Shown: positions 1-64,000, counted from the stretch's first letter. The stretch is 64,000 nucleotides of DNA from Psammoneis japonica (GCA_008632985.1 QPGO01000171.1:62001-126000), one strand, 5' to 3'. Notes: generated by a model not told the origin, from the letters alone. Numbers and translations: made by a program.

Positions 1-1260
1 CATGACAATCCTGGAACCGAGAGTGGGGATTGCGCGTCTGAGTAAACACATCCTGTGGACTCAGACCCACAGATGGGTCTGGCATCACGTTATAAAGCAC
101 AACAGCATGGTCCACAGCCAAAGGCCAAAGAGTAGCGTCTGCAACATCAGGCCAATGAATTGCTGCATGCAACATCACACTTCTCGCGATCGACATTGCA
201 GTGTGTGTTGCTCGTTCACAAACCCCGTTGTGATGGTGAGCTCCCACACTGGCATGCTTTGAAACTTGTGCAAAAGACTCCAAGTGAACTCTGAAATTGG
301 CCGACGTGAATGCCTTTCCAATGTCGCTCAAATGTTCTTGGGGAACAACGCCACAATCACGACAACGGGCCTCAAATGCGTTCTTGGCCTTCAAAGTTTC
401 ATGGGTGTTGAGGTGAGTTTGATGTTGAACGTTGACACAACCAGATGCATGATCCACAAAAATTGCTCCACCTGAACACTGATGTTTTATGTTCTCCTTT
501 CCAAAAGCATGTTTCAGATGACCACGCATGGAACAAACAAAGTGATCAACCGATGCTCATTGACCAGGGAACAGTTGGTTTTTCTTCAAGGCTCCAGCTC
601 GATCCTTGACCACACGAGAACTCTTTCCGGGGCTGGGATGGCGTTTTTGTTTTCCACATTGGCATGCAGCACAAAGGGGCAGACGATCGACACGACAAGA
701 GCGCGTTAATGCAAATGACGGGCACCCTCGGAGTGGGATGGAACTCCCGTGTGCATCAAAAATTGCACCTTTCGAAAGCTTGGATGGCCGAGACGAAAAT
801 GCCAACGTAGTGACTCCTTTTCAGCAGGTGAGACATTGTGATTGTGTTCCATTGTCGTTGACAACATCAAATGAAACTCCTCACAAATTCGTTGACTTGC
901 TTGATTTGCATGGGCCCATCCAACCGGTAAGTTGGTTGAAGGTTCAACCAACACCTCAACACCATGCCTGTGTCCTTGTTCGCAATCCTTGGATCCACTG
1001 AGGCTCGATAGACTCATCCGAGCATGTCTGCAAGAGACTGGTTGTGCTCAAGAGACGAGCCTTGGACTTCGGGATGTAGTGGGCCAGAACCTTCAGGGTC
1101 TGAAGCACCCCAGTGACATCAACAAAAGACCAAGCAACGTGTCCCACACCTGCCACATTGAGTCCCTTAGCAACACCTTGGAGCCGGATGGCGACAGGTG
1201 GTTTCTCAAGAGGTCTGACGAAGTCGTCCTTGCAAGCAAGGTGAGACCGATGCGCTTGCA
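1..1260 (-). pseudogene. Ty1/copia element A: frameshifted protease C-terminus, pre-integrase and integrase core
   Basis: Minus-strand translation gives SPAEKESLRWHFRLGHPSFRKVQ (pre-integrase), then GGAIFVDHASG...GAHHHNGVCERA...LHAAIHWP...LWPLAVDHAV (rve core), with stops and frameshifts. Runs off the window start. Confidence 0.85.
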
Positions 1261-3607
1261 CCTGAGTCCCAAATGACTGGGAAAGTGTGCTCTTGAACCA
1301 CTTCCTCTGTCTCCTTAGGACTCGCAAAAGCCACCTTGAGAGCACCAGCAACAGAAAGCAGGGATGACGGGATGTCAGCATTTGCTAGATGAGCCTTGGC
1401 TGCCAGGGAGCAGATGGCATCAAGCTGGGAGCACATCAAACCGTGCGCAACCTTCGAACTAGCAGGGCGACACGTGGGTGTCTTGAGGTTCCGACCACCT
1501 TGATGATGAACATCGGGACCCCTTTTTAGAGCAGTGCTCTTACAACGTCTGGCACCCTTGGGACAACCTGCCTCTCCCTCTCGACCAAGGAGAGGACGTG
1601 CGCATGAAGGTGAGTGACCACTCGAAGGCCTTGACCTCCCCGCTTGTGTGTCATGCAACTGATCACGCTGCTGCTGCTTGACATTGGGTGCTCCACGGGC
1701 TCGTTGGACGAGAGAGGGATGCCTGGCTGGAGTGTGGCGGCGTCCGGAGCGAGGCTGAAGCTCCCGCAGGCGACGACGCCCCCAACGACCACGACGCTTG
1801 GAGAACTTGGTTCCTTGGCGTGTAGTCCAGCAGGGAGGTGGGGGAGGAGGAGGAGCACGTTGGGCTTTGGCACGAGCATCATGCTCAAACTTAGATGGCA
1901 AGAAGACGGCCGCTAGAAGCATCAGGAACCAGAGAGCAGGTAGAGGGTAGAGATGCCAGTGTGACGAGATGTGCGACGCAACAACCGTCATGAGCCAGAC
2001 CATGGCGTTGACTCCAACAATCCACCAGTTGGCCGGAAGCTGGGAACACCAATGTCCCAAGGTAGCACAGAGCAGCGGAGATGCAAAAGGGTGGATCAAG
2101 GTGAGCACAACTTGAAACAGTCCAAGCAGCACGTCCTTGAAGCCTGACTCAAAGTCGAATTCCGCGTGCCATGCTCCAGGATCCAGGAAGAGGGTGTTGG
2201 CTTGCTGAGTTGGTGCAGGAGGTGATCCATCCTTCTGCCCATGCTCAGCAGTGCCATGAGTGGTCGACCAACGACGGCACTTGGCACACCAGTGCCAAGT
2301 CTTATCCTGCACAACCTTGGACTCAGGTTGTCCGGGATGAGGCGCGACCTTCTTCCAGTTGCGCGCAACGCCACTGCTGCCATTGCTCCCATTGCCACCC
2401 TGGCTGCCGTTGCCACCAGAGCGGGTCTTGCCCCTTCCACCTCGACCTCCACCGCTTTGCCCAGGGTTTGAGCCACCGTGGTTGCTCCCAGTGCCCTCAC
2501 CAGACTTGTCAGGACAGTCACGTGCCCAGTGTCTGAGCTTGCCGCAGTTGTTGCATGGAGAGTTTTCCAGAGTTTTCTTTCCGGTGGCAGCCTTTTGCTG
2601 GAAGAGAGCATTGAACTGTGCCTGAGTGAGTGGAACTCCAACTGTTTGACAAGTGGCAGAGGGATCAAGTGCTGGGTTTCCAAAGGCTCTGGGACCGGCT
2701 TTGGAATCCGTCGCGTGCTTGATCGGGTCCCACTGCAAGTTGTTCTTGAACAAGTGGTGGCGGTCCAGGATCTTTCCAATGACTTGAGTGCAGGTAAGGT
2801 TCTTGGATGCAAGGCATCGTTTTGCATCCGTCTTAGACTTGTACACTGTCTCAACCAGTGCCTCGCTCAAGTTCTCTTTCATGGTTCGAAGGGCATGCTT
2901 GAACTGCTGGCCGTTTTTGCCATCCCCGCCAGCTTCCAGCCATGTGTTGACCAAGGTAAGCGTCAGCTTGTGGTCACACTGACCCGCAACATCTAACTCT
3001 TGGGCCGTAGTCTTGAACTTAGACAGCAGCTCGGAGAGATCCTGACCGGCGAACTGGGAGGGCTTGAGTTCCTCCAGCTGTTTTTCGAGTTGCTTGAAAC
3101 GTTTGATGGACGTGCTTTGGAGGATCACGATGAAAGCCATCCAAACCTTCGGAAAGCAATCCGTCTCCTCCGTCTCCAGATCCAGCTGCATGGCTAGGCT
3201 GGTCTCCAAGGAGTTCTTGAGAAACTCAGTAGCGTCCCTGTCATTGGATTTATCGCAGGAGTCACACTTGGCAAGTTGAGGTGCGACAAGACGGGCGATG
3301 CTCGATTTGGAATACCGAGGATGTCCTTCAACGCAGGACGTCACAGAAGTTGAGTCCTCAGGGTCCTGGAGGTAAGTTACCGCATCCAAACCGCAGTCCT
3401 TAAGATGCTTCATCACGTTCTTCTCAAAGGTTGCAAGGTCTCCCTTCTTGGTGAACTTGGTTGAAAGTCCGGTGACGCGGTAGTCCTTGCTCTTCTGGGT
3501 GGAAGAAATGTGGTGGGAGCGATGCTGATTCAGAGACGTCGGACTAGAGTTGGCAGTTTCCAATCCGGACCAATCAGCCTTGGGTTTCCCACCAGTCCAA
3601 GCAACTT
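1206..3607 (-). pseudogene. Ty1/copia element A: gag body and aspartic protease
   Basis: ORF 1206..3644 has a CCHC knuckle (CNNCGKLRHWARDC), a second WHWCAKCRRWSTTHGTAEH motif and the protease motif VIWDSGAS. The first residues of the listed ORF come from the LTR of inserted element B. Confidence 0.85.
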
Positions 3608-3852
3608 TGACAGAAAATGAAGATGACTGGGTGGAAGAAAACAATGACTCCTTACTGCTGTCTAAATAGCAGATGAGTCTCCGTGCAGAGACCGTTACAG
3701 GAGCCGAAAGACTGGTGTCGTGACATCGGTGCTACTGTCATTATTCTTGTGAGCCGAGTGGCTCGAAAGCAAACTACATCGCGCGATGCGCGCAGAACTA
3801 AGAGCACACATAATTATGTGTGATAAACTAAAATCTTGTTCAAATCCTGTCA
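3608..3852 (-). repeat. 3' LTR of element B
   Basis: 245 bp, direct repeat of 9968-10212, preceded on the minus strand by the PPT-like AAACTGGGGAG. Confidence 0.95.
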
Positions 3853-6800
3853 CTCCCCAGTTTGCTTGAGGGGTCAACAGTGACAGATTCAAAGCCGGAT
3901 TGGTTGAAAGCCTTGGGATCGAAGTTCCAAAACATTAGAAGACTAAGGAGGTTCCAGATTTGGGAGTAACCCCAATGCTTGCTGAGGATGTCAGCTGGGT
4001 TGCGGGAGCCTTCGATAAAATGAAACTCGAGGAAACCGGAGGCAATCGCCTCACGTACACGATGGAACGAGAGGGCGGTGTGTCGCTTGTGTAACTTGGA
4101 GTGCGGGATGGTAGCACTGTCCACAACCGACTTGTTGTCCCCAAACATGTGACATGTTTCACGAATGGGAACGCCAAGGTAACGTAAAGTGATGCGCAGA
4201 TCAATGATCTGCTCAACGCACGTCCTTGCGGCAACAAACTCGGATCCACATGTAGCAGTCTCAACTGTTGCTTGTTTCTTAGAGAACCAATCAGCCGGAA
4301 ACTTGTTGAGGAAATGGAGGATGCCGGTGACAGAGCGTCCAGTGAGCATGCAATGGAACAAGTTCGCATCAAGGTAGTGTGTGGTGGTGACGAACTTGCC
4401 AAGCGGCTCGGGTGCATCTTGCAGGAGCAGCTCTTCTACCTCCCCATACACAGATTGAGCCCAGTCATGCACGGGCTCAGGGAGGTCCGAATAGTCGGGC
4501 TCCTCGGTGCGCACTCGGAGGGTGCCATGACGCATCTTGGAGAGGAATCCGCAGATGCGTTTGGCACGGTCTAGCTGGCCTTGGCGGGGCGCTGCACGGA
4601 AGCTAGACAGGGACATGACAGCCGTAGTAATGTTGATGCGACCTGGAGACACAGCCCATTGCAGGGATCCAATTAAGGTTTGGAATTGGTGGATGCCCTC
4701 CTTTTTGAGTAATTCGGAGGTGTCGAGTTCAGGGTGGTCACCCTTGTCAAGGGGTGAAAGCACATCAGTGCGGGGCTTCTCCCCAAAGAGACGTGCGTAG
4801 TTGTCAACCATGCGCTCAATGCACTTGCGGGGAGCAAGGCACAGGGTGCCATCTGGGTCACCGGTGAAATCGCAGCCAAGATGGAACTCCAGTGGTCCAG
4901 TGCCCTTGAGCTTGAACTTGCATTTCTCCATGAGGGTGTCTGCAAAAGCCTGGGGGTCCTTCATGGTGAAGGCTGGGTCATCCACATACACTGCCACGTG
5001 TTCGTAGTGGTCACCATTCCTGCGCAGCCAGATGTTGGGTTCGGCTTTGCATGGGAAGAAGCCTTCGGCACGCAAGCAATCAGCAAAGTGTTCATGCCAT
5101 CTGAGGCCGGAGCTGCGGAGTCCGTACAAGGCCTTGTGGATGACAAGGATGTGTCCTTCCAGGTTGCCGAACTCGGGGCCTGCTGCGATGTACAGTTTCT
5201 CCTTGGTCGTAGCTTCAAGGTAGGCATCCCCAATGTCAGTGGCCCAGGTCTCTAGTTCATTGAGTTCAGCCAGGAAGATCATCATTTGCAGGCCACGGAG
5301 AGACACTACTCTGGAATAGACACTGTCGACGGGCACGTATGTGAGGTGTCCATCAGCAACAAGCCTTGTGCCGTCCGTCATGTTTGATGTCATAGACGAG
5401 ATGCACCCGGACCTTCTTGTGTCCTGATGGAGCACTGGAATCGTTGTGGTGTCCGCAGTCATGGAAGACCTCGCACTCATCAAACTGAGTCATCTCGAGG
5501 TCCGTTGCGTCTCCCCACTTGCGGTTGCCATTGCGCTCATCAAGGGCCATGGCATGCTTGCAGTCCCGTGGCACTACACCCCCGCACTTGTGTCGTGGCG
5601 CAGTGCGAAAGGAGCGTAACTTGGCTTGGTTGGCCATGTGGAATAGCTTCTTCTGATGAAGGGCTATCTTGCAAAAATGTCTCCATCCTTCGGTTTCTAG
5701 AAGGCCGTGCTCATGCGCGTAGATGGCACAGGTGATGGGATCGTCCTTGGCAATGATGGCAAGGGGTTTGGATGTGACCTCCCCATTCTCCCATTCAAGC
5801 ATGACGTTGTAGCTTGAGCCTTTCCAAGAGGGATCATGGGGTCGCAATGGTCCTTCGTGCGATGCGATGTGTCGGAACTTCCAGAGGGTGGTGTCCTCGT
5901 CTTCTTGCTCAATGTGGTGCATGATGTCATTGCAGGCTAGGACTTCCTCGCACTCATCATTGTTGACGGAGCAAATGAACTTGACCAGTTCAGGATTGCC
6001 TCCGATTTTCCAGTTGTGGTCCTCAATGGCTTTGACCATGCAGGCTCTGTGGCATTGTCCATCCTCTTGTGGCTTCATGAGGAAGGTGCGTCCCATGATG
6101 TCCTCGGGGTCAAAGACCGGCATTTTGGGCATCCTGATTGCCTCCCCATCTGGTGAATCTGGCGAATCCTCAGAGTCGTGGCGGGATTTAATGTCAGGTT
6201 CAGCAGATTTCTTATCAGGAGGATCAAGATGCAGGTTTGGAGCAGATGGATCACAGGCGGAGCGCACGTTGGAACGGCAGAGAATCTTCTGAGTGTCATC
6301 AGAAAGAATCTTGAACGTCATTTGGTGACCAACGTGTTCGGTGATGCCAACGAAGTGACCACATAATTCATGGGATTCAGACGGCCAGTCGGAATCATCC
6401 AGGTGGCAGCACATCAGTTCCCACCATTGAAAGCCGAGGAGCGGGCTGATGTTGGGAGTGGAGCCGGATGGCACCTCAGTGGGGGTACGCCAGTGGAGCT
6501 TGGCGGATGCCGTGTGGTTGAGCACAAAGCACACGTGCATCAGGGTGAGCAGCCAGGTGTAAGCCGGGGACCCAAAGTGATCCATGACAGTGTTGGCCAT
6601 GGTCTTCACAGTTTGGCAGCGGTGTTCAGCAAAATTCTGATGCTGGTGGTGAGGCTCGCTTTGCCAACTAGAGATGAAGAGGGCACGAAGGATGCCAAGA
6701 ACATTGTTGCTGATCTCAACCTGAGCACGGTGGCTGATGAGCTTGGACGGGGCACCACGATTTACGAATGTTGTCTTCGAGGGTGTTGACAAATTCTTTG

Positions 6801-8983
6801 TCAGTTTTCGTGCCACACACATCAGTGAGAAGAGATTCCGTGCCGACAAAGAGCTGGGCGCTGGTGCAACCAGAGTCAATGGCAGGGGTGTCGGAGTGGA
6901 CCGTGTTGGCAGCAACGGGTTCATTATGTCGGTGGACATTGAGAGCCGGGTTGGGCGATTTGTACGCCTTTTTCAGGTGCGTGCTGGCTGGCATGCGGGC
7001 GTGCTGCGTCGTGCAATCAAAAGTGCGGCGGACAGTGTCCTTCGGGAGAAAGCCAAAGCAGGGGTGGAGGGACTCAAAGTTGGGATCCTTGGGGATTGAG
7101 TTCGCCCTCATGGCATTCATAGAAGAAATCAGATGTTGGGAGCAGGTGATCATCAATGACGGAGTCTGCAAGCATGGCGTTGTTGACAACATGGCGGTGA
7201 CGATAGTTGCCGAACTCATCAAAGAGGTTGGCAGTTGGGTCATCTTGGAGGTCAGACACGGCATCACACCAAGTCTCATCATCCGTGAACTGGTGGTCAA
7301 GGACAGATGGATCCCATGTGTCATCACCAGTGAGGATGACATGCAGCAGAGTGTCCCATTCGGTGTCGGTGTACGGGCGCATGGCGATGTGCGGGAGGCC
7401 GGCTTTAATGTCGATGGGAATGACGCATCCATCAACAGTGGTGACACGCTGCAGATCGTTGGGGACCTTGATGGACCGATCGTTGACATTGTGTTTGTGC
7501 CACTTGAGCTGGCCCCAAGAGTGCATTGTCTTCTTCCCCTTTCCAGTGTGGGCGTGCTGGTGAAGGATGGCAATGGCAGGGCCACGTTGCGTGTGGATGA
7601 CACCACCAGCAGTGACAATGGGAATGTCCACCAGTTGATGATCGTCAACACCTTGGACGTCAACCTGGCGACCAGTGCGGGCAATGACATGAACATCATC
7701 ACTGGCGATGCCACCGTTTGCACCACGATCCACGAGAGCACCTTTGCGAGTTGACTTGTGGGTCGCAGCAGCGTAAACGACATTGTGGTTGTTGATGCAA
7801 CGGTGTTTGTGGCCGTTGATCTCAATGTCAGTGTCATTGGGCTTCGCGTCGGAGTGGACAGAAGGTGCAGATCCGGGCGGTTTCTCACCAGAACAGGTGG
7901 AAGGAGGCCGTTCAGGTGCCAGGAGATGTTGCAAGTCGCCGGGTGGCAGGGGCTTGCACCTGGTGAGATGAGCCAGAATGGGGTTAGCATCGGCTGCAGC
8001 GTCGGATTGTGCAAAGGCTGACGCAAGATCGTGAGTGTTGGCGGACAAGTTGACATCGCCATCGCTGCCAATGCAGAGGTCGTGCAGGTTGACCACCGTC
8101 AAGTCATGGCAGTTGCTGGTGTGGGCGGTGTGCGAGCCAAGAATGATGGCCTTGGTGGACTGGGGCAAGGTGTCCCAAATGTGCTGATGGTCCGGCGGAA
8201 TGCGACGCCATTGTTGAGGTACGTGAGAAGGGTTGAGGACTCCAGGGATGCACGAGTGGAAGCAAGGGCGTACTTGGAGATGTTACGATGCACTGCTTGA
8301 GCATCAGAGGAGCCGACATGTTGACGAACAAGTGCCTTGCCTTTGTCATTCTGCAAGATCCGTTCGAATGCTATGAACATGCACTTCTGTTGTTCATCAA
8401 ACAGGGCCTTGTCCTCAGCTGTAGAGGGCTTGTACGTCGGATGGAGAATGCGTGCGACGTCTTGGGAGCGGGCCTGTGCGACAATGGAGGTGTGCCACGT
8501 GTGCCACTGTTTGTCAGACTTGAGAAGCGCAAAGGCAAGTGGGTCACGTTTGATGCCTTGTTTAAAGTCACGCATGGGATCACGTGGTTTGTGTGGCAAC
8601 GAGCCAGGAGTGGGAGCAGATGGTGCTGTACCCATGGAGAGGGACGCCACATGCTCAGGACTAAGACAATAGTTGGTGAACTCCTCTTGTGTGAACAATT
8701 GAGAGTCATTGCTAACATCCGCGCCACCGTGCGCTTTCACCATGTACAGGCTAATCAGCACAGCCATCTGTGCTTTGTAACCATGTGGCAAGGGCATTTG
8801 ATTGGTGCCGTCATTGTACACAAGGGCATCCAATTGCATCGGAGTAAAAGTGAAAAGGTCCTGACACGAATCGGTTCCATCAATGTTGAGGGCAGAGCGC
8901 AATGGACTGCCTGCGGCTTGATTCAGAACAGTGCCTAGAATGTGCTCGAGGCCATCGATTTGTTGTTGCCGGGTGAGAACCAT
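3840..8983 (-). pseudogene. gag-pol of element B (several frameshifts and a gag deletion)
   Basis: ORF pieces 8099..8983 (gag), 7074..8168 (protease LVDRGANGG), 5353..6939 (integrase) and 3840..5483 (RT YVDD, RNase H NPADILSKHW). The segment matching about 18880-19325 of element C is missing near 8215. Confidence 0.92.
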
Positions 8984-9625
8984 GTTGCAACTAGGTGGAT
9001 GTCGGAACTGGCTAGAATCGGAGTGTGGGCTTGAAATAACTTGAAACTTGACTTGAATCTTGACTTGATGTCTTGAACTGTCTTAAGAGTCAGAAACCGC
9101 GGGCTATGACATCCTGTTCGTAGTTAAGTGCCAAGCTTCCTATCCGGTCCATAGAGTTGTGCCGGCACGTCCAAACCCGCAGCTGTTGACGCTTTGGGTT
9201 GCTTGAGAGTGGAGCAACGGGTTAAAAACCCCTGCTGACAAGCTAACTAGAGGTGGACAAGACCTCTGAACCGTTCTTATTTTATGTTGGTTGGATGACC
9301 CGATCAGGCCGGCCAAATTTGGCGCTGTGGAGGGACGAACAAACGTGGGAAATGCACCCTCACCCCAATGCAGGCTGCAATCATGAACTGCTTCCTCTCA
9401 CAGTTGTCCTCGTGGACCTTGCAGGACTGTAGAAGACCAGCAATCCGGTGTAGATACAAGGCGGTAGACTTGGCGTGTGTGGAGCAGAGCCAGAGTCAGG
9501 GGTTTATGTTGTGTGCACGTGGACGCGAGAGGATGGATTGGTGGGATCCGCTACAAGGAATCCGGAATCTTGGATGTCTGAGAATTCGGGAATTCCTGGC
9601 CAAACAAACATCCGTTGAATAAATG

Positions 9626-9966
9626 TGTCCAACGATGGGAGGCATTGGATAAATCAAAACGTGTAGATTTTAATCCAGCATCCAGCAGTGAAGGAGGTAG
9701 ATGCACCCTTCCACCACCAATGGTGCGTGTCATCAAAAATTTCTCGATGACGATGATGAACACTCAACGGACAATAAAGAGCAAGACTGTTAATTTTGTT
9801 CAACGATGGGAGGCACTGGATAAATCCAAACGTGTAGATTTAATCCAGTGTCCAGCAGTGAAGGAGGTAGATATGTGCTTCCACCACCCAACGATGCGCG
9901 TCGTCGAAAAATTTCTCGATGATGATGATGAACGCTCAATGGACAATAAAGAGCAAGACTGTCAAT
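9626..9966 (-). repeat. Diverged tandem duplication (about 171 bp x2) in the leader of element B, including the PBS
   Basis: 9626-9794 and 9797-9966 align. Each ends in AAAGAGCAAGACTGT(T/C)AAT on the plus strand. Confidence 0.85.
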
Positions 9967-9967
9967 C

Positions 9968-10212
9968 TGACAGAAAATGAAGATGACTGGGTGGAAGAAA
10001 ACAACAACTCCTTGGTGCTGTCTAAACAGCAGATGAGTCTCCATGCAGAGACCGTTGCAGGAGCCGAAAGACTGGTGTCGTGATGTCGGTGCTGCTGTTG
10101 TTGTTCTTGTGAGCCGTGTGGCTCAAAAGCAAACTACATCGCGCGATGCGTGCGGAACTAAGAGCACTAACAATCATGTGTGACAAACTAAAATCTTGTT
10201 CAAATCCTGTCA
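9968..10212 (-). repeat. 5' LTR of element B
   Basis: 245-bp copy of 3608-3852, followed on the minus strand by GATTGACAGTCTTGCTC (PBS position, 9951-9967). Confidence 0.95.
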
Positions 10213-53258: not shown

Positions 53259-56200
53259 TGCAGCAGGTGTCCCCACCACAGCCGCCATTGATGCTACTTT
53301 CCTGCATCTGCAAGCTGTCCGCAGTGATGCTGATCCCGCAGAAGCATGTGGCAGCAAACGCGACTCCCAGCATGAGACCTGCGATGGGCCACAGGAGTTC
53401 TGTGCAACTGAGACCGGCACACTGGCCATTGTGCAAGTGACTCACCTTGCATGAAGGGTTTGCGTAGGATGTGCACAGTGCTGAGTGTGATTGGTTCCAC
53501 AGAAGGACTGAAGCTCCATGTGTCCCACTGTCATGCATGCATGCACTCTAGGTAAAATGTGGTCTTGCTCACAATTTACGCAACACACGAATTATCAACC
53601 TCTTGACGACCAAGTGCTTAGACCCTGTTTTTGCACAGGGCATGGCAACATTGCTCCCAGCAAGTGCAAGAGTGCCCTTTCTTTAACTGACCATGATTGT
53701 CAGCCGCTCTACAGAGAAGAGTGGGATGCAACAGAATGTCATTTGCCTGTTCTCTATGACTGTTTCCTCAGAAGAGCAGCAGAAAGCAAAAAATTGCCAA
53801 AATGGTGATCGTGTGGCAAGAACGCGTGCAAGTGTTTTTCAGAACTTTCAGCAATTGACAATGGCGGTGATGCACCACATGCACTGCCAAACAATGAGAA
53901 AATTGATCTCATCCAATGACAGACAGTGGGAGAAGAGAACTCCAAGATTCAACATGCTTGACACGAAAACCGCAGATGTCACCTTTGGTGAGCGATTTGA
54001 GAATCTTGTTCTAAATTTCATTCATTGCCGGTGAGAAAGACACTGACACCGATGACTGCCAAGAAGGCAGCACTGCAAACTATGCAAAAATGGCAGTTTA
54101 GATGTGCCAAACTGCCCAAGACAAAGTGTCATCAGAAAACGACTTGTGACAATGCCTGTTTCATGTTTTCAACGAGTGTGGGACACATGATGGACACAAT
54201 TTTTCTGCAAGGCTATGAATGGCCTAGAGCCAATGCTCACACACAATCCCATGTGCAGCATCATGCACATGTCATTTGTTGACACTTAAATGTGAGAATG
54301 ACTGCACAGTGGCAAAGATGCGAGGTGCCACATAAAAAGAAAAAGGCCGAATGGTGCGTCAGACGGCCTGCACAATTGATGACACGCAGCAAGAATGACT
54401 GCATGTGCTGATTTTGGATGCGAGACATCAACTGATGTGCCATTCGCTCCGGTGAAAGAATTTTTTACATTGTCAATTGCTGAATGTTTTTAATCCATTT
54501 TAGTGATGAAGCACATGATCAAATCACGGGATGTCCCGTTTTCAAAAATGCTTGTCTCCCTCACCAGATTTGCAGTGTTGTTTGTTGATGTGCACAGAGG
54601 AACACTGCAAAACCAGCAAGCGAGATAACTGTTTTTAAGCAAAAGGATGTCACGGTGAGAACACTGGACAAGTTTAGTTGAGTTAGTTGCACTCCGAACA
54701 GCTAAATAATTTTTTTGCAGCAGCCAATGGTGATGCTCAAAGGGTTGAATGGAAAAACCCACTGTGCAAGAAAACCACACACACAGGAGCACACAACACA
54801 TGCTCTCCTCTGCCATCACCTTCATGTAAAAAAGTGCTGAACAAGACGTCATGTGATGAAATGCTCGAAGGGTGAAACGGAACATCCCAACATGTGACAA
54901 ATCACATGCAAAAAGTCAATGTGCTCAAAAAAACAGAGCACTTGACCGCTCATGGGCTGGAGACCATTCGGTTTAACTGACTTCAACGAACTCAACAAAC
55001 GGACAAAAAGAATGCCATTTTGAAGGGCCGAACATAAGGACATGACACTTCAGCTATAAAAACTGTAAAAATTACGAAAATGCCCGGAAAAAGGCACAGA
55101 AGTGCCCAAAAAAGGCATGCAAACTTCAAAAAACAACCTGAACTGGCGTGAAAAGAGCTTTGTGATGAAAAGCCCACCATTCAAATAAAAATTTGATGTG
55201 TTCTTTCCATGAAGGTGAAAGAATGTGACATGAGCAAAAAATTTTTGCTTTGTCTGTTGCCTGTCAAAGACAGAAGGGGTGTTGACGTAACAGAAAGTGG
55301 AGCCTGATCAACTCTGCACATGTGTTGATGCGCTGCCTTTTTTCTGTTTTTTTAACCCAGGGCAAACTCCACAGTGGAACTCACACATCAGACATTTCAA
55401 AACTTGATGCGTTACATTCTTGATGCGCATGCTGGCACAGCACTCCAAGTGCAAGACATGGAGTTAGACAAAGAAGATGACCCTTAGACTGAAACTTTCT
55501 GCCGTGACCTTTGCTGTGTGTGCAACTGTGCACACCACTGCTGAGGCAACTCCAACGCAGTTAGTCTTTGGATGTGACACAAGATTGTCCATTGCCTTTA
55601 GAACTGAGTGGAGGCATGTCTTGGACAGAGATCAGAAAATGTCCCGCTTAAATGACAAGCGTGAGAACTTTAAGAGAAGACAGTGCTGACATGCAAAGGG
55701 ACAACTTGTGCCCATCAAGCAAGAACAATGGACAAATGGTGGCACCAACATTTATGCAGGGCCAGCTGCAGTTGTTCAAGTCAATGAAAATGTCATCCTT
55801 CATGCATGAGAAGGTGCGCTGGTGGACATGCAAAATGCATGTCAAAAATGTCCCTTGCCAGCAGCAGGACCTTCTGTCACTTGTACGACCTTGTCACAGG
55901 GGCAAGTGCAGCAGGCATCCCTGCCGCAGCTGCTGTTGATGCTGCTTTCCTGCATCTGCAGGCTGTCCGTGGTGATGCTGATCCTGCAGAAGTGCGCAGC
56001 AGCAAATGTGACTCCCAGTGCAAGACCTGCGACAGGCCACAGGAGTTCCACATGACTGAGACCGGCATGACTGGCCATCGTGCAAGTGACTCACCTTGCA
56101 CGAAGGGTCTGCGTAGGATGCATGCAGCACCAAGGGTGATTGGTTCCACTGAAGGACTGAAGCTCCACATGTCCTGCTGTCGCACATGCACGCACTCCAC

Positions 56201-56286
56201 GTGAAACAGTCTTGTAATTTGCGCAAGACACAAATTATCAACCTCTTTATGACCCAAGCACTTGGACCCTGTTTTTGCACAGGGCA
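53259..56286 (+). mobile_element. Internally deleted Ty3/gypsy-like LTR element inserted in the LINE RT
   Basis: Diverged LTRs 53259-53642 and 55907-56286 (TG...CA), 4-bp TSD CAAC (53255-53258, 56287-56290), TGG-initiated PBS at 53643, purine tract before 55907, and an integrase C-terminal fragment ATVHTTAEATPTQLVFG.D at 55.5 kb. Confidence 0.8.
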
Positions 56287-56786
56287 CAACCTTGTGATTT
56301 TCAAAGAAGCTAGAAACAACAAGATCCACTGATTGCACGTCATTCACATTTATGAAGCAGATTTTCAGTTGATCTCCAGTGTCATGTGGCGATCTCTTGC
56401 CCAAAATGTGGAGCATCACAAGCTGTGCAATCCCGGGATGTGCGGCACCCACCCATTTTTAAACACAAATGCTCCAGTGTGTCTCAAGGAATTGATGCTT
56501 GAAATCAGCAGGGCTTCTGGGAAAACCACCATTCACAGCAATGACAACTGCACCTCTTGCTGCAATTGCAATGTCCCGGCTCAGGCAGCTCTCAAGAGTC
56601 ACAGCAACAGCATGCCTAAAGAGGTTACCCAGACAGTGAATTGCACCCTGTAGCAGGCACAATGTTGGTTGAAAACTGCAATTGGATTGTCCCAATCATC
56701 ATGTTCTCATGCCACCACATCTCCTGTTTGTGGCACTGGCCAGGGCAGTGGCAACTCCCCCTTTTGTTGGAACTAAATCTGCAATG

Positions 56787-56873
56787 GCCTTTTCGAGACA
56801 TTTGATCAACATGCCCATGGAGCCTTCTTTGCCTTTTCGAGACATTTGATCAACATGCCCATGGAGCCTTCTT
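56787..56873 (+). repeat. 44-bp tandem duplication in LINE RT
   Basis: GCCTTTTCGAGACATTTGATCAACATGCCCATGGAGCCTTCTT occurs twice, at 56787 and 56831. Confidence 0.9.
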
Positions 56874-59819
56874 CAAGTCACCGAACCATGCAGTGTCTAT
56901 GAAAGTCTACAACCATGGACATGTTGATGACACTTTGAAGCAAGTTAACAATTTTACCGTGTCCACTCAACCCTCGGCATTAGAATTGGCCTTCGAAATG
57001 CAGGAGGACAATCAGTTGTGGTGTGATCTTCTGAACCCTGCAGGTCATGAACTTGAACTCCCCAAGTGCTCGTTTCACATTGTTCAATGGCATTTTACCA
57101 AGGATGGCAAACCACATCTTTGTGCATGCAATGACAACGTCAGCATTGACATCTCTTCAGCCGATCAGTCACATGCAAGGTCCAGTGTTCAGTTGTCAGC
57201 CTGTGCTTCCCACAAGACCCTTGGTCATTGTGAGGCTCCTGCTGGCACCCAGAAAACTCTCTGTAAGGTGCTCAAGAAAAGAGCAACGACATTGCCCCAT
57301 TTCTGAGGTCTTGCCCTCTTGACAGGCATGCATGAAGCATGGACTCACCATTTCACCTGTCATTTATCCTGCATGATGTGCACTCTTCCAAACACCCATT
57401 CTGCTCTGAAAGAGCTCCTGGAAATTCAACAAAAAGCAATGAGAGTGGTCTTTGCTAAATGTGGACACAACTGAAACACCAGACACGATGTTCTCTTTGG
57501 TCCTCACTCCCTTGGTGGTGGTTTGTGCAGGTCCCCAGATGTTGAACAGGGTGTTGGTCAGGTCCTGCAATTTCTTTCTCATTGGCACGGCATTGGTCAG
57601 CCTTCTACACTGTCTTGCATCACAGTTTCATGAACTTAGCATCACCTGGGAACTGGCATTGGTTTTCTGAAGGATGTTCATTCCAAGCTCCCTCACTCAG
57701 AGTCGAAGTGGTTCATGTCTCTCTGAGCATTCTTGTCCCAGGTTGATGCATGCTTTGACTTGGATGAAACTGGTGCACTTCCTCTTCACCGGGACAAAGA
57801 TCAACACATGATGGATGTGGCTTTGGACTCCAGAATTTTCTCTGATCAGGAGATTCATTGGGTGAATCATTGTTGCTTGTGCCTCAACATTCTCACCATC
57901 TCTGACATGTCTTCACCAGATGCTGGCCATTTTCTTGACAGACAAAAGTTTCTCGGACAACATTCTATCCTCAGCAGCACATCAACATTGAACCCAGTAG
58001 AACAGGCCCTTCCATCTCCTTGAGCATGGAAACAATGGAAGCAATTCTGCAGTTTGTTGTGCAGGGGCGATGATCTGGAGTTGCATGGCCCTTTGGGCTG
58101 TTGGGTGATCTCATCTGCGGAGATGTGAATGCAGTTCCCCACACATTGTGAAACATTTGAAGAACACCTGTGTGTGTGTTCTTCAGATAGATTTCAAGTG
58201 TTTCCTCTCATTCAAGGCATCGCTGGCAAAATCTGTCCCCTCAAAGTTGTCCCAGACTTATCTTTTCTAGCATCACCACTTGTGGTTGAAACCATTGAAG
58301 ATGGCAGATGGTGGGTTCTATCTCTGGGAACCCAATTTGACCTTTCTGCTGCACTTCCTGTTCCCTCAGATCTCCAGGACTGGTTGAAGTCTCTCCCCCC
58401 TTGGGAATTGTCCTTGTTTGCAGAGGTCTCTCTTCATGTCTCAATTTTTGAATTAGCAGAGTGTTTGCACTTTCATCGTGCAACAGCAGCAAGCAACGGA
58501 TCTGTCATTGGCTTTGACACCACCTTTGGGTGGACGCTCAATGTCAATGGCTTCATGTTGGTTGATTGTGCTGGTTCAGTTTTTGGCTTCCACCCTTCTT
58601 CCTGTCATGCTGAAGCATGCAGAGTGCTCTCCTTTCTTTGATTTGTTCTCAGAGTTGTGGAACATTGCCAAACAGCCTTCTCCTTGGGCATGGACTTACA
58701 CTGTGATGACTCTGCCATTGTTCGGAATGTTGCAAATTTACATCCGTGCTCCTGAAGCAGACGACCTTTCTAAAGCTCATCTTGATTGCCGCTGCCATTT
58801 TCACATTGCCAACACTGTGTTGGCTGACTGGGATGTTGTGAACAAAATCTTTCACTTGGCAGTGGGTCTCTCTGCAGAGTCAACACACACTCAAGTTGAT
58901 GTAAAATGGATCAAGGGCTATCAGGACGACAGCACCCATTGTGATTCCTTGTCTCTTCCAGCACAGATGAACATCCGTGCTGATCGGATTGCAGGCCAAC
59001 GTGAAGAATTTACCATGTGGTAAATTTAAATTAGTTCAGTGTGCTTTGTCATTGGCGATTGGGCACAGAGCGGTTCCTCAGGTTAGATCTCACTTCTAGA
59101 AAAGTGGCACAATGTTGCAAGCCTTTCTTTTAGTCTTGTCCCCAGTTCACGTGACTGAAGGGTAATTTGTTCACTTTGTCAGAGCCATTGCTGTACAAGA
59201 CAACAATTCTGAGCATCATCTTTGCTTGCAAATGACTTGCAACACACAGAACATTCCACACAAGTCAGGGATGATGAGTGAACATCTACGAATGCAAGAG
59301 GCATTTGTGCTTGACGAGTTTTACACTCCCAGAATCAGTGTGAGTTAGAACACTTGTTGACAACTGTGGCATCGTCTGTTGTGATGTGTTTCACAGCATG
59401 CATGTGTGAGCACAGAGTGCAATCCATGGATTTGGGACACCATTTCCATTCTGAAGTTATCTTGGAGGCAAACACATGAGCGATTTGAAATCACTGGGTG
59501 ATGATGTCTTGTGTAGATTTTAAAACAACACAACATCCGTTGGTTGCTAAACTCATGTGTCATGTCCAGACACACAAATGTGATCACGCTGCACAATTCA
59601 CAACATTGTACTTTGCATTCACCACCAGTGTGTTCAGGAAGATCATTGGAATGTAAATGGTCCACACAGACACACAAGTCTCATTGTAGACACATTGTAC
59701 AAATGAACTAACGGATTCATGTGCAACAATGAAAATGCGATTTGAACTTCGCGCAACTCGCTCACTTTTCAAGTGAGAACCACACAACTTGTGTGAAAGA
59801 GTTCTCTTGTCATCAACAA

Positions 59820-62800
59820 TGAACCACCAAGCCATTCACCATGGCAGCCCACGCTGCAGCCATGCATGCTGCATTCCACTGACTGGGCTTCACGAATGAA
59901 GCATTGGTGGCTCTCACCACTGACCAGGGAATCGACACAGTCAAGGAACTGTGTCATCTCAACAACCATGAGGTCAAGACCTTGTGCAAGGTTGTGCAAC
60001 AACCCAGGAGGTGCAGGAGGAGGTGGGGCAAACCAACAACCCAACCTGGGGACAACCACATTGCTGTGGGCTGAGATGAATCTCAAGCTCGTGTCTTTTG
60101 CTGCTCGTCACTGTGAGCATGTCTTGCATGCATTGCGTGCCACCAACACTGCTCTCAACTGGGTGAGGGGGTGCCACCATCTTTGTGCAGCAGAGACATC
60201 CCACAAGAACCCTGAGACCCCACCCACTGTCATCAAGAATGACTGGCCAAAGATGATGGAAGCAATCCATGAGCATCTTTGTGCTTGTTGCAGGGAGACC
60301 AACATTCCCCTGGCCTGTGTGGTCCGAGAGACTCAGATGGTGATGCCGGAGGTGGACGCAGCCACCAACAACTGTGCTGATGCCCATGAAAAGATGATTG
60401 CCCATGCTCCCCACTTCACCACCGGGGCTAACCCACAGCCCACCAAAATGTTTGCTGCTGACAATTTCAAGGTTTGGGAGATCATTGCTGGGATTGTGCG
60501 GGAACATTCCTGTTGGGCATGCGTCAATGAGGCACAGCACAACCAGGATGGCAGGATGGCCCACCTGAACTTGCACAACCATTTCTTGGGCCCAAATGAC
60601 ATGGATGACATGGCCAATGCTGCTGCAAAGTGCTTGGCAGGTCTGTCCTGCCATGGCAAGCACCAAAATTGGAACTTCGAGTGCTTGGTGCATGTTCATG
60701 TCAAACAGCACTCTGTCCTTGAAGGTCTCAAGGAGTGCAGCTGTGCCGGGATTAATGAGCGCTCTAAGGTGTGCCACCTCATGGACAGTGTCAAGGATGC
60801 ATCCCTTGACTCTGTCAAAGTGCAAATTGTGCAGTGACTTTGACGGATGTGTTGTCTTGTGCAAAGACTTCATCAAGCAGTGTCCAAGCCGGACAGTGAG
60901 ACCAAGAAGCTCCGCATTGCTGCCTTAAAGTCTGCCAAGCACCAATGCAAAGATGTCAAGGACAAGTGCTGTCCTGACGAGGAGTGCGAGCAAATGTCCC
61001 CAAAGGTGTGCAAGAAACTCAAGTCACTTTGCGACACTTGCAGTGGCCAGGACACAACATCTGTGGCCAAGAACACAAAGCAAATCAAGGTCCTCACCAG
61101 TGCGGTTGCAGCACTGTTTTGCTGCTCACATTGAGGACGAGCAGGATGATGCTGCCAGCAAGTCCAAGGACACCACTAAGACGCCTGCCATCAAGCAGAA
61201 GTGCAACAGCTCCAACTTCCAGTTGTTGAAGGACACCGCAGCCAATCACCAACATGACAGGAATGGCAACCTCAAATCAGGTCAGAAGGAAAAGGAATGA
61301 TCCTCTCCGGTCCTGTGCCTCAGTCTGCTGCGGACTCTGTGGGTGACTCAAACTGCCAGGAATGGCAACATCAAATCAGGTCGGAAGGAAAAGGAATGAT
61401 CCTCTCCGGTCCTGTGCCTCAATCTGCTCCGGACTCTGTGGGTGACTCAAACTGCCATGCAGGAAGCCACACGCATCAAAGCTCCCACTGAGTTAGACAG
61501 TCATGCAGACATGAGTGCACCAGGCAAGCATGCTTTAAAACTTTGCTTGACCATGGTCATCCAGCAGATGTCACAGGTTGCAACCCGGAACAAGGCACCA
61601 GCAAGAGCCTGCACACCACAAGTGGAGCAGTCACTCACACAGACCCTGCCTTGAGCCAACAACAAATCCTGGCAGTCCACTGGGCAATCCACATCCCACA
61701 CCTTGAACACAACCTTTTGTGTCCCATGCAGTCATGGCTGAATGATGTGGGAGTGAACCCACAATAAAAATTCCCACTGAAAAAGCCTGACAGCAAGTCA
61801 CATGCGGTGACAACAACAGATGCAAACAGGGACAACCTCCTGATTCCATTGGAGCTAAAAGGGGTCATGAGTTGCTTCCCCACTTCCAAACCCACTGCTT
61901 CAGAGCATGAAGCAGCCATCCAAGATGGCACAGCAGCAGAACTCACTTGCGAGTCCCCAGAATGGGACCCACAAACTGCTGATTTTGAAACCCGGGAGGA
62001 TTCCATGATGGACTCTCTTGGTCATGTGCCTGAGACTGGGTGTGATGCGCATCCTCAGATCGATTGTGAGCACAAAGCTCTCATGCACCGCGGCACAAGA
62101 GACCTCAGACTGTCTGGGGAATTGGCTGCTTTGAGACATCTTGCATGCATGCAATGACCGCATGCTGGTGGCCTTGAACAGTCTCTCTTTGCTCAAGACA
62201 ATGAAGCAGGGACTGCATGTTGATGCAGAACATTTGGCCAAGAATTGGTCTGTCAGTGTCAAGGACGCTGAGAACACTCTCAAAGTCACAATGCAGGGTG
62301 GCATGCAAATGGTCCTCCATCCGATGCCATTGCGGAGGCTCCGGACCAATGACCGACAGCTGCGATGCAGGCGTGTTGCAAAGGAGATGTGCTCCGATGC
62401 CTCAATCTCCTTGACCAAGTCAAGAAGGGGCAACACCTGTGCTCAGATCTTTGGCATGTCCAGTGGTTGGGCACGGGCTTGTCCCCTCAGATCTAAAGGA
62501 CTGGCAGATGAAGCACTGTCCTTGCTCTTTGGGCAAGATGGCATGCCCCACACGACGATTGCAGATGGGGCAAAGGAGCAGGCACTGGGTCAGTTCAGCA
62601 AGAAATCCAGGGAGGCTGACTGCCATGTCAAGCAGCCTGAACCCTGTGCTCCATGGTCCAACTTCATTGAGGGAACTGTTCATGAACTCAAGTGGGGTGC
62701 AGGATGCAAGATGATGAAGACTCAAGTCCCAAAATGCCTTTGGGATGATTGTCTTGAGCTTGAAGCTCTCATCCGATCCAACACCATCCATGACATTTGT

Positions 62801-63560
62801 GAGTTAGAGGGAGAGGTCCCAGAAACCACTTGTCTGGACAGACAGCCAACATTTTGCACACATGTGAGTTCAGTTGGTGTGACTGGGTCATGTTCAGGGA
62901 CACAGCAGTCTCCTCATTCCCTGAGGACAAGAAAGTCTTAGGGCATTGCCTTGGTCTGAACCATGACACTGGTCCGGCTGTGATGGCAAAGACACTGAAG
63001 AACAATGGACAGAAGTCATCCATCGTTCATCCCATTGACCCTTGAACCCTGAAGAACAGTGCCACGAGATTCACTTGGCATTGTGCAAGAAATTTGATGG
63101 GCCAATGGAGGCCAAGCTAGGTGACGACGGTTGAGGACATTAATGAACCTGGTGCTGTGACCCTCACTTTTGATCCATGTGAGGACAATGCCAACCAGGA
63201 GGCTCCTGCAAGTGTGCCTGACAAGGACGATGTTCTTGATGCTGCTTTTGATGTTTGTGTGAACTCAGAAGTGTTGCTGCCTCACGGGGACACCCAACAA
63301 ACTGGGACAGTCAAACAGTGCAAGCTTGATTCGGATGGAGCACCAATGGGCAGAGCCAATGCCAATCCCATCCTAGATGCTCGTGCACATGAGGTCAAAT
63401 TTCCTGATGACCAGGAAGCTGAGTTTGTGGCTGATGTCATGGATGAGAACATGTTTGCACAATGTGACAATGAGGGCAACCAGTGCTTGCTCCTGGATGC
63501 TGTTGTCAATCACAAGACCAATGGGCATGCAGTCCAGAAGGATGCCCACCTGTTTTTTTT
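59820..63560 (+). mobile_element. Degenerate, 3'-truncated Ty1/copia element D (gag, protease, integrase)
   Basis: gag motifs NDWPKMME..IPLACVVR, HFLGPN, CHGKHQNWNFE; protease ELDSHAD; integrase IADGAKEQ..EPCAPWSNFIE..LWDDCLELE; GRANANPILD. No RT is seen. Confidence 0.82.
61258..61457 (+). repeat. 99-bp tandem duplication in element D
   Basis: CAGGAATGGCAAC...ACTCAAACTGC repeated with a few mismatches at period 99. Confidence 0.9.
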
Positions 63561-64000
63561 TTGCCAAACGTCCATCACACCATGGCGACTCTACGGTCAC
63601 CGTTTCCTCAACGGCATCACCTTCAAGAGCCACAACAATCAACAACATTTTGTATCTCATGAACTTGTGTGCGGTAGAATTGACACATGTGAGTGTAACG
63701 GGCTCATTGTTGACTTATGCGGTCAAAAAGCGACGGGCAAAAAATTGAACATTTCAGCTGTTTTGGCTACGATCAATCAATGGCAAGGCACAGCAAGGCA
63801 CACACATGTGAAATGAATTACGTGACATCGACACATGCCAGTGTTATGGTGAGTTTATGGCTGTTGATGGGGCACATTGCGTTTGCGGTCGCCATTGTCA
63901 TCGTGGTTCGACAAGTTGTGGAAAATTTGAAATCTAAAACATTTGTGCACACAGATGCATTGTCACTCACAGGATCTACATGTCATGTGTTGCTCGACAT

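Follow-up and report, generated by a model that had tools for sequence, protein, structure and literature searches.

Evidence for TpA-specific hypermutation of integrated mobile DNA in the diatom Psammoneis japonica

A 64,000-nucleotide stretch of the Psammoneis japonica assembly (GCA_008632985.1, QPGO01000171.1:62001-126000; hereafter the window) places host genes beside repeat DNA that has lost nearly all of its TpA dinucleotides, and it raises the question of what removed them and at which stage in the life of an inserted element. An original prediction held that a host process acting on genomic DNA depletes TpA in every transposable element (TE) class, spares genes, and stops at sharp boundaries. 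We propose that the locus records post-integration, DNA-level, TpA-specific A:T>G:C hypermutation of mobile DNA, a reading to which we assign a probability of roughly 0.75.

The features of the window are collected in Table 1. Pooled over the erased blocks at 24-26 kb and 29.9-64 kb, the observed/expected ratio (O/E) is 0.13 for TpA, 0.26 for CpG, and 1.71 for TpG/CpA, with local TpA minima of 0.00-0.03, whereas the three host genes are spared as predicted, at 0.61, 0.99, and 1.16, respectively. TpA O/E is 0.65-0.68 and CpG O/E 0.94-1.09 in the CRT-like transporter gene; the corresponding values are ≈0.4-0.7 and ≈1.0 in the SAPS gene, which has diatom homologs down to E 2e-211. The counts on which the contrast was originally based, 10 TpA in the 1560 bp of 32401-33960 (O/E 0.12) and 10 in only 240 bp of the transporter gene at 13501-13740 (O/E 0.57), were exact on recount. 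The loss of TpA is mirrored by a gain of CpA and TpG. GC content is nearly the same in relics (0.48) and genes (0.49), and AA is not depleted (O/E 1.18). TpA O/E falls with element age, from 0.47 in copia B to 0.33 in copia A and 0.13 in the relics.

Three compositional features lie beyond the original prediction. The old blocks are co-depleted in CpG, their TpG/CpA is raised to 1.7, and pyrimidine-purine steps are equally dense overall in genes and relics, at ≈0.24 per bp.

Table 1. Features along the 64,000-nucleotide window
Feature	Position	Strand	Evidence and composition
Third copia-like relic (gag/pre-integrase part), strongly TA-depleted	1..3731	-	TpA O/E 0.09-0.35, CpG 0.5-0.77
gag_pre-integrs in third copia-like relic	709-1047	-	Pfam, E 1.4e-7
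zf-CCHC in third copia-like relic	within 1209-3731	-	Pfam
Copia element A, older	3608..10286	-	LTRs 3608-3926 and 9968-10286, 92% identical
Copia A RVT_2	3843-5489	-	Pfam; element TpA O/E 0.33, CpG 0.69
Partly erased repeat DNA, no class label	10287..12500	.	TpA O/E 0.26-0.43
Host gene, CRT-like transporter, spared	12532..14099	+	CRT-like in ORF 13017-14096, E 1.3e-6
Host gene, SET/Rubisco-LSMT-like, spared	14301..16113	-	Rubis-subs-bind, E 4.5e-11; TpA O/E 0.63-0.74
Intact TA-rich stretch upstream of SET gene, adjoining erased block	16410..16505	.	18 TA in 96 bp
Old erased relic, left half, split by copia B insertion	16546..16913	.	HMM segment 16546-16939
Copia element B, young, high-copy family	16914..24006	+	LTRs 16914-17189 and 23731-24006, 276 bp each
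Copia B RVT_2	1564-aa ORF 18017-22708	+	Pfam; element TpA O/E 0.47, CpG 0.96
Old erased relic, right half	24012..26044	.	HMM segment 23953-26044: 10 TA and 16 CG in 494 steps
Host gene SAPS (SIT4/PP6 phosphatase-associated), spared	26438..29554	-	Single 1039-aa ORF; SAPS domain
34-kb block of erased repeat relics, mostly without class label	29886..64000	.	HMM composition
Little-mutated island within erased block	31605..31919	.	Host-like composition: 8 TA and 15 CG in 72 steps
Possible LINE-type endonuclease remnant	51129..51677	+	Exo_endo_phos, E 5.5e-5, 23.5 bits

The claim that every TE class is depleted could not be confirmed. A Pfam search of 54 ORFs of at least 150 aa in the window and 175 ORFs of at least 90 aa from the depleted parts yielded copia domains and one weak LINE match, and nothing else. 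The copia part of the claim is confirmed. The LINE assignment is weak, since the Exo_endo_phos match at 51129-51677 falls below its curated cut-off (23.5 versus 24.5 bits) and a search for an RT beside it found none. The DIRS, gypsy, and DNA-transposon labels found no support in Pfam, homologs, or terminal inverted repeats: the ORF labeled a DIRS-like gag (31666-33342) has no Pfam match, no atlas match, and no homolog, and no terminal inverted repeats were found when they were looked for. Among TE classes, targeting is proven for copia only. Five ORFs of at least 90 aa in 10287..12500 gave no Pfam match either; the summed depth of contigs over 12001-12667 reaches 1430, versus ≈30 for unique DNA. 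For the 34-kb erased block, repeat depth and context suggest mobile DNA. The island within it probably represents a young high-copy insertion, with a summed depth of ≈24,900 in the bin 31344-32000 and an 83% match to 11575-11670.

The edges of the erased DNA were mapped with a two-state HMM on pyrimidine-purine steps and in 50-bp bins. The HMM switches state at 16537/16546, 26044/26051, and 29882/29886, and also at the LTR edges of the nested copia element (16939/16941 and 23949/23953). The change between erased and host DNA takes from less than 10 to 50 bp, and host sequence 10-50 bp away from erased blocks retains its TA. Both of the sharp switches originally described are borne out: the stretch upstream of the SET gene (O/E 2.8) gives way to a single TA in 296 bp, and beyond the SAPS gene, near 29.8 kb, the count drops from 24 TA in 29500-29800 to 3 in 29800-30300. 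On the erased side, the segment 16546-16939, which extends 26 bp into the copia B LTR, holds 1 TA and 2 CG among 97 steps; 29886-31598 holds 1 TA among 398 steps, and 31932-63998 holds 303 TA, 506 CG, and 6822 TG+CA. Together with the gene composition and the retention of Tyr in 10 of the 14 homolog-majority Tyr columns of SAPS, these maps confine the mutation to inserted DNA and leave host genes normal.

The direction and timing of the change can be read from the LTRs, because an element inserts with two identical copies. Copia B is flanked by a 5-bp target-site duplication (ATTTG at 16909-16913 and 24007-24011), and its 276-bp LTRs differ at nine positions, eight of them ancestral TA sites and one other. 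The pair has 15 ancestral TA sites, and mutations affect 8 of the 30 TA copies versus 0 of 42 CpG copies (Fisher p = 0.0005); in the older copia A, the figures are 14 of 30 TA copies versus 4 of 26 CpG copies (p = 0.02). In the four-way LTR alignment there are sites with TA in one copy and TG or CA in the remaining copies, and at three LTR sites both outgroup copies have TA. The copies that still have TA at such sites set the direction as TA>TG/CA. In both LTR pairs and in the asymmetry relative to outgroups, the changes are almost exclusively A>G/T>C at TpA. Both products are present, meaning that either strand is mutated, and they are balanced, with TG:CA ratios of 34:39 in copia A and 21:29 in copia B and no strand runs; strand skew in the relic blocks stays within ±0.13.

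Not all sites are affected evenly. The TA changes in copia A are concentrated in one LTR (11/15 versus 3/15, p = 0.009). Those in copia B are divided 6 to 2, which is not significant; their density along the element is patchy, and depletion is only partial, the 17.0-18.0 kb portion having a TpA O/E of 0.9-1.1. Flanking-base preference at changed TA sites is weak in young copies, and in old relics it may partly reflect back-mutation.

These observations bear directly on whether the editing could have preceded integration, through A-to-I editing of TE RNA or editing of cDNA as it is reverse-transcribed, with retrotransposition then fixing the changes. Every element of proven class in the window is a retroelement, and RNA deaminases favor a 5' U, as noted in the Discussion of a preprint by Mettrop et al. 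(bioRxiv 10.64898/2026.01.13.699255); both points would suit such a route. The LTRs of one insertion, however, differ at TA sites, editing of RNA or single-stranded cDNA predicts one product instead of balanced TG and CA, and depletion is strongest in relics with no detectable coding capacity. Single-strand editing before integration is contradicted by the LTR divergence and the strand symmetry, and we regard this origin as scarcely credible. The original view of a host process on integrated genomic DNA, as opposed to errors of RT or the editing of RNA from a single family, holds in light of LTR divergence, the polarity of the changes, strand balance, and sharp edges.

Metagenome contigs provided outgroups, and 46 related environmental copia loci were compared over the homologous pol region. 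Relative to four outgroups, environmental relatives that are themselves unmutated, copia B carries TG/CA where the relative has TA far more often than the reverse (73:6 for L001, then 66:6, 59:9, and 46:10), whereas CpG changes are symmetric (78:57, 43:47, 25:63, and 45:80). TpA O/E is above copia B's pol value of 0.41 in 43 of the 46 relatives, most lying at 0.55-1.0, and below 0.4 in only 3. Five of the 46 combine a CpG O/E below 0.3 with a TpA O/E of at least 0.48. Since copia B has lost TA without CpG, CpG decay fails as the sole cause. The TpA process is separate from CpG decay and faster; in the copia A LTRs, all four CpG differences are polarized CG>TG/CA by outgroups.

The same data weigh on a passive origin, in which error-prone repair or replication in silent, methylated chromatin would mutate TpA with no dedicated mutator or defense. 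TpA and CpG depletion do share boundaries, and the deepening of depletion with element age is as this account would expect. It sits poorly with the strict specificity of the young LTR pair, in which eight of nine differences are at TA sites and none at CpG, with the five CpG-decayed relatives of normal TpA, and with the undepleted AA; we also know of no repair polymerase with a TA-only signature. We therefore consider a passive by-product unlikely.

An artefact is a further concern, either as miscalls caused by base modification or in the form of elements that were TA-poor on arrival through codon usage or RNA selection. Contigs were built from a public run of one study, which may be the source sample of the assembly and for which the library type is not on record. 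They match 12376-16940, 23981-29644, and 31672-32000 with 0 differences, although this run may not be independent of the assembly, which leaves some room for miscalls; the GC-rich coding part of copia B (0.55-0.60) likewise leaves some for intrinsic composition. Because the read-derived contigs are identical to the assembly, an assembly artefact is unlikely, and contigs at a depth of ≈30 are identical to the erased relic. Copia family variants alternate between TA and TG/CA at 20 among the 40 places listed. The signature recurs in metagenome contigs belonging to other records, where 66 of the 93 differences between L039 and L042 are TA-type, and the higher TpA of nearly all relatives speaks against a TA-poor arrival. 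Coding positions tell the same story: of the 43 Tyr codons in copia B, copia A retains 19 as Tyr and has Cys in place of 12 and His in place of 9, so conserved Tyr has turned into Cys or His, whereas Phe survives at 58 of 62 positions and Trp at 30 of 30. An artefactual or compositional origin is very improbable. The systematic rewriting of Tyr, Arg, and other codons explains why domain searches miss diatom repeat relics, and TA-site hypermutation biases both TE annotation and LTR-divergence dating in genomes of this kind.

How does this hypermutation compare with known systems? Our literature search, which included diatoms, returned no report of a TpA signature in any diatom, and so far the signature has one prior description, in an unrelated alga (Mettrop et al., 2026 preprint). 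That preprint (10.64898/2026.01.13.699255) followed mutation-accumulation lines of Bigelowiella natans. Of 231 new mutations that arose in two integrated viral regions, 230 were reported as A>G/T>C, all of the latter falling on TpA, at an episodic rate of ≈6e-7 per site per generation, ≈1000-fold above background; TpA-poor CDS there show an enrichment of RT and DDE domains. The diatom footprint resembles this NCLDV/virophage hypermutation in consisting only of A>G/T>C at TpA, which yields TpG and CpA, and in long-term TpA depletion with a gain of CpA+TpG. B. natans is a rhizarian, whereas Psammoneis is a stramenopile diatom; the rate was measured in lines there and is inferred here from LTR pairs and outgroups alone. 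Erasure is far more complete in the diatom (TpA O/E 0.13 versus a Rho of 0.45 in the NCLDV region) and is overlaid with CpG decay, and the main target, single-copy viral DNA in the preprint's account, is here a set of high-copy LTR elements together with unclassified relics. The occurrence of the footprint in a second lineage fits an origin predating both, although the two may also have arisen independently. The diatom footprint extends a TpA mutator to one of the ocean's main primary-producer groups, where LTR divergence offers a means of dating it and the decay of methylated CpG can be told apart from it.

RIP changes C to T, mainly CpA to TpA, which makes DNA AT-rich and TpA-rich; it depends on repeats and RID/DIM-2 and is premeiotic. 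Like RIP in Neurospora and other ascomycetes (PMC7296669, abstract), the diatom process disables repeats by DNA-level, dinucleotide-specific transitions on both strands with sharp element edges, but in the opposite direction, removing TpA and adding G:C. RIP-type CpA>TpA mutation is rejected by the loss of TpA and the gene-like GC content of the relics. Diatom DNMT4 is described as related to RID and of unknown function (PMC9998398). The methylation-driven CpG decay known from silenced transposons is present in the erased blocks, as their CpG O/E shows, but it fails to account for the TpA loss, given the TA changes of the young copia element without CpG changes and the TpA kept by CpG-decayed relatives. 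APOBEC enzymes alter C, not A. Hypermutation of selfish elements by deamination is shared with APOBEC on cDNA, ADAR/ADAT on RNA, and amphioxus ADAT2/3 on DNA (PMC10354150), in contrast to which the diatom process is post-integration and affects both strands. BjADAT2 acting on DNA prefers GAA (adenine) and TCG, not TA (PMC10354150).

We propose that the A:T pair in 5'-TpA-3' is changed in a targeted manner to G:C on either strand, giving TG or CA, with onset soon after insertion and a per-site rate at TA that LTR pairs and outgroups place, as a relative estimate, approximately two orders of magnitude above other positions. The process runs on until TA is nearly exhausted and ends within tens of bases of the element edge, and a second, slower, separate process, the usual loss of methylated CpG to TpG/CpA, strips CpG from the same DNA. 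The data show directly that the changes are specific to TpA, run from TA to TG or CA, follow integration, affect both strands alike, are restricted to inserted DNA, and are independent of CpG decay. The chemistry could be adenine deamination by a candidate enzyme preferring a 5' T, yielding hypoxanthine, a base that is read as G. We favor this DNA adenine deaminase as the most likely route, at slightly less than even odds; a 5' U/T preference is described as typical of adenosine deaminases in the Discussion of the preprint (10.64898/2026.01.13.699255). It presents a concrete target in the search for a natural DNA adenine-editing enzyme.

The same targeted process could instead modify thymine, with a TET/JBP-type oxygenase producing 5-hydroxymethyl- or 5-formyl-uracil at TpA that mispairs with G and gives T>C. 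Oxidized thymine does mispair with G, dinoflagellates carry 5hmU preferentially at TpA, and, because TA is self-complementary, T>C and A>G are inseparable from sequence. Mettrop et al. argue for adenine deamination, likewise without proof, and we judge the thymine route distinctly unlikely.

We also infer a role in genome defense, and the targets may be marked by silent chromatin, methylation, small RNA, or repeat homology. One broader reading, which we hold only tentatively and would sooner bet against, is an old enzyme-driven defense common to diatoms and chlorarachniophytes that would mark newly integrated or silenced DNA and deaminate adenine at TpA. It would mirror RIP but carry a targeting signal of its own, and it would act before an element has diverged by more than a few percent, with no dependence on cytosine methylation. 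If true, major marine algae would possess a context-specific, locus-targeted DNA adenine deaminase that shapes their repeat landscape.

Counting against a defense role, copia B belongs to a family that remains very abundant, and the copy in the window retains its 1564-aa ORF with YVDD intact. With respect to duplication as a trigger, the young target belongs to a very high-copy family, and the erased relics at 24.0-25.3 kb now have a nearly single-copy depth of 34-62 versus ≈30 for unique DNA.

Inserted DNA in the window has undergone a post-integration, DNA-level, TpA-specific A:T>G:C transition process that is confined to it, and the TA erasure is real and strong. At a GC content of 0.50, the observed/expected frequencies (O/E) across the 64-kb window are 0.26 for TpA, 0.53 for CpG, 1.55 for TpG, and 1.53 for CpA. 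The original prediction described TpA depletion in transposable elements with genes spared, and its TA counts all proved exact on recount, including 10 TA in 32401-33960 (O/E 0.12) against 10 in 13501-13740 (O/E 0.57). Two features absent from it are the depletion of CpG alongside TpA and the rise in TG and CA that mirrors the loss. Genes and relics (old TpA-depleted repeat DNA) have the same density of pyrimidine-purine steps, ≈0.24 per bp, as is predicted for transitions inside that step class.

Features of the window and their coordinates
Feature	Position	Strand	Basis or description
Third copia-like relic	1-3731		Pfam
Copia A (older)	3608-10286	-	LTR repeats 92% identical
CRT-like transporter, host gene	13017-14096	+	Pfam
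SET/Rubisco-LSMT-like host gene	14304-15365	-	Pfam
Copia B (young)	16914-24006	+	276-bp LTRs 97% identical
Older, fully erased relic around copia B	16546-16913 and 24012-26044		
SAPS host gene	26438-29554	-	Pfam; 1039-aa ORF
Island in fully erased block	31605-31919		315 bp; host-like TA and CpG
ORF without Pfam domain in tested homologs	40806-41810	+	335 aa
LINE-type endonuclease match	51129-51677		Pfam, sub-threshold
Tandem duplication	49766-50273		252-bp units, 99% identical
Tandem duplication	61250-61447		99-bp units, 93-95% identical

Strand-symmetrised dinucleotide O/E by sequence category
Category	TpA	CpG	TpG
Genes	0.61	0.99	1.16
Young copia B	0.47	0.96	1.26
Older copia A	0.33	0.69	1.47
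Old relics, 24.0-26.0 and 29.85-64 kb (36 kb)	0.13	0.26	1.71

The copia elements were found by self-comparison of the window; A and B share 71-75% identity across ≈6 kb. Copia B is flanked by a perfect 5-bp target-site duplication, ATTTG, and is nested in the older relic. Although ≈40% of the TA sites in this copy are already gone, it retains a 1564-aa ORF with YVDD intact. Copia A departs from a plain LTR-internal-LTR layout: a 175-bp internal segment (9620-9966 region) is duplicated in tandem at 87% identity, and the sequence outside one of its LTRs (10287-10340) corresponds to the internal 3' end, suggestive of a recombinant or tandem arrangement.

Both LTRs of one insertion are identical at integration. 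The copia B LTRs now differ at nine positions, eight of which lie within seven ancestral TA sites; counted over LTR copies, mutations affect 8 of 30 TA and 0 of 42 CpG, along with one other position (Fisher p=0.0005). In copia A, 14 of 30 TA copies are mutated compared with 4 of 26 CpG copies (p=0.02). The four-way LTR alignment contains several sites at which one copy keeps TA and others carry TG and CA (at one site, the four copies read TA, TG, CA, and CA), and at three sites, TA is present in both outgroup copies. TG and CA can both be reached by single steps only from an ancestral TA. Hits, that is, TA changed to TG or CA, fall unevenly on the LTR pair of an element (3 versus 11 of 15 sites in copia A, p=0.009; 2 versus 6 in copia B, not significant), a possible sign of bursts or patches. 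In both elements, the LTR with more hits lies at the higher window coordinate.

Comparison with environmental relatives gives the same direction. We took 50 metagenome loci encoding relatives of the copia B pol, of which 46 match over 500 nt or more. Compared with the four closest unmutated relatives, copia B has TG or CA where the relative has TA at 73, 66, 59, and 46 positions, with 6, 6, 9, and 10 in reverse; its CpG changes against the same four are symmetric (78:57, 43:47, 25:63, and 45:80). Copia A has lost TA (72:17, 61:9, 71:8, and 48:8) and CpG (e.g., 118:36) alike. The erasure can be read in codons as well. Opposite the 43 Tyr codons of copia B, copia A has 19 Tyr, 12 Cys, and 9 His, and opposite the 29 Tyr of A, B has 5 His and 4 Cys; between B and A, Phe is kept at 58 of 62 positions and Trp at 30 of 30. 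Of 114 Arg positions in B, 28 are occupied in A by His, Cys, or Gln, the reverse occurring at 2. The SAPS protein, serving as a host control, retains Tyr in 10 of the 14 columns that are mostly Tyr among its homologs. Scoring of 8000 candidates gave that ORF 248 homologs with E ≤0.001; within the best 120 of these 248, those with a name belong to pennate diatoms (Nitzschia, Cylindrotheca, Fistulifera, Seminavis, and Fragilaria), with identities of 36-48% in the matches listed. This places the window in a pennate diatom to which nothing in that database is closely related.

The loss of TA is strand-symmetric. Polarized hits divide TG:CA as 34:39 in copia A and 21:29 in copia B, a search of both elements for strand-coordinated runs of hits found none, and TG/CA skew stays within ±0.13 in the relic blocks. 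RNA or cDNA editing, in which the changes would precede integration, is contradicted by this symmetry and by the divergence of the LTRs of one insertion. The same two observations support the core of the original prediction, a host process acting on genomic DNA rather than reverse transcriptase error or RNA editing.

The loss of TA also outpaces CpG decay and is separable from it, since copia B carries TA hits without CpG hits in its LTRs and 5 of the 46 environmental loci have CpG O/E <0.3 yet TpA O/E ≥0.48. Depletion of TA grows with age, from copia B to copia A to the relics. Flank preference is weak in the young copies, the hit fraction lying at 0.24-0.26 whichever base precedes the T and at 0.17-0.31 depending on the base after the A; in the old relics, ATA/TAT are most depleted (0.06) and TTA/TAA least (0.22). 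A passive bias of chromatin or repair is less likely as an explanation, because the specificity is strict and the CpG-decayed relatives retain their TA. We favor enzymatic deamination of adenine, tentatively and with a probability of roughly 0.45: a deaminase preferring a 5'-T would convert A to I, which would be read as G. The main alternative is oxidation of thymine at TpA, and because TA is self-complementary, adenine and thymine chemistry are indistinguishable by sequence.

The sharpness of the boundaries, also part of the original prediction, is borne out: TA falls from 8-9 per 50-bp bin to 0-1 within one bin. There are 24 TA in 29500-29800 versus 3 in 29800-30300, and 18 in 16410-16505 followed by 1 in the next 296 bp. 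A two-state HMM on pyrimidine-purine steps places switch points at 16537/16546, 26044/26051, and 29882/29886, and further switches coincide with the LTR edges of the nested copia. Guidance of the process by homology or RNA fits such edges of 10-50 bp better than spreading chromatin does. The TA-rich stretch at 16410-16505, upstream of the SET gene, has an O/E of 2.8 with GTAC/CTAG/GTAG-like words and stops ≈40 bp short of the erased relic.

The original prediction extended the depletion to every class of transposable element. This is proven for copia; the other classes have no verified support in the window. A Pfam search of 175 ORFs of at least 90 aa from the depleted parts returned copia domains and the one sub-threshold endonuclease match, which has no adjoining reverse transcriptase; a homolog search of 51649-52203 against longer proteins was blank. 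An inverted-repeat search of the window gave no convincing transposon termini. The ORF at 31666-33342, proposed as a DIRS-like gag, was unsupported by Pfam, by the protein atlas (no usable match), or by a homolog search (blank). The 335-aa ORF has 37 homologs in a library of 1.84 billion proteins (best E 1.3e-28), and all 13 homologs tested lack a Pfam domain; the ORF appears to represent an uncharacterized protein family, which presumably belongs to a mobile element. Its Tyr test gave Cys in 2 of 3 columns, too few to count.

Reads and contigs from one study (one sample, four runs) served as an artefact check. Contigs built from run X1 at a depth of ≈30 show 0 differences from the window over 12376-16940, 23981-29644 (erased relic included), and 31672-32000, the last being part of a 6916-nt contig. 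The check is good but not independent, as X1 may be the sample of the assembly itself, with library type not on record. Listed variant places between copies of the copia B family comprise 106 A>G, 78 T>C, 52 C>T, 33 G>A, and 43 transversions; a subset of 40 places consists of 20 TA<>TG/CA, 11 CG<>TG/CA, and 9 others.

A TpA O/E <0.4 occurs in 3 of the 46 environmental loci (L027, L039, and L042), and the footprint is lacking in the other 43, which predicts a lineage-restricted distribution of TA erasure. The elements at these three loci are ≈64% identical in DNA to copia B. In L042, TpA O/E is 0.08 and CpG O/E 0.69. L039 and L042 are 94.5% identical, and their 93 mismatches are mostly TA-type (66, with 8 CG-type and 19 other), so the footprint is present in environmental DNA from other records too. 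A look-up in the other genomes of the same survey returned no look-alike of the window.

A similar process was described very recently in Bigelowiella natans, where 231 of 302 nuclear mutations in mutation-accumulation lines fell in two integrated viral regions (bioRxiv 10.64898/2026.01.13.699255). According to the authors, 230 of the 231 were A>G or T>C, all on TpA (Mettrop et al., bioRxiv 10.64898/2026.01.13.699255). The rate was ≈6e-7 per site per generation, in some lines only. An ADAT2 homolog was proposed as the enzyme, and RT and DDE domains were enriched among TpA-poor coding sequences (bioRxiv 10.64898/2026.01.13.699255). That preprint does not mention diatoms (bioRxiv 10.64898/2026.01.13.699255), and searches of the literature on diatom hypermutation, RIP, and dinucleotide depletion turned up no account of diatom TpA erasure. 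Psammoneis japonica is a second lineage with this kind of hypermutation; new relative to B. natans are the direct evidence from LTR pairs and outgroups and the separation of the process from CpG decay. The main target in B. natans is single-copy, which runs counter to a homology cue for the process in the window. Amphioxus ADAT2/3 naturally deaminates A to I on DNA, but it prefers GAA (PMC10354150), unlike the TpA preference found here. DNMT4 of diatoms, whose function is described as unknown, is a relative of fungal RID (PMC9998398).

Within the erased DNA, the little-mutated island behaves as a later insertion. It is high-copy by contig depth, 96 bp of it are 83% identical, reversed, to 11575-11670, and its probable identity is a young short repeat or a solo LTR. 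Differences between the units of the young tandem duplications are few and mostly not TA-type (both differences in the 252-bp pair are transversions), which fits almost no TA remaining to mutate. The mutator has evidently not halted the expansion of the copia B family, whose summed contig depth is 67,000-158,000 compared with ≈30 for unique DNA.
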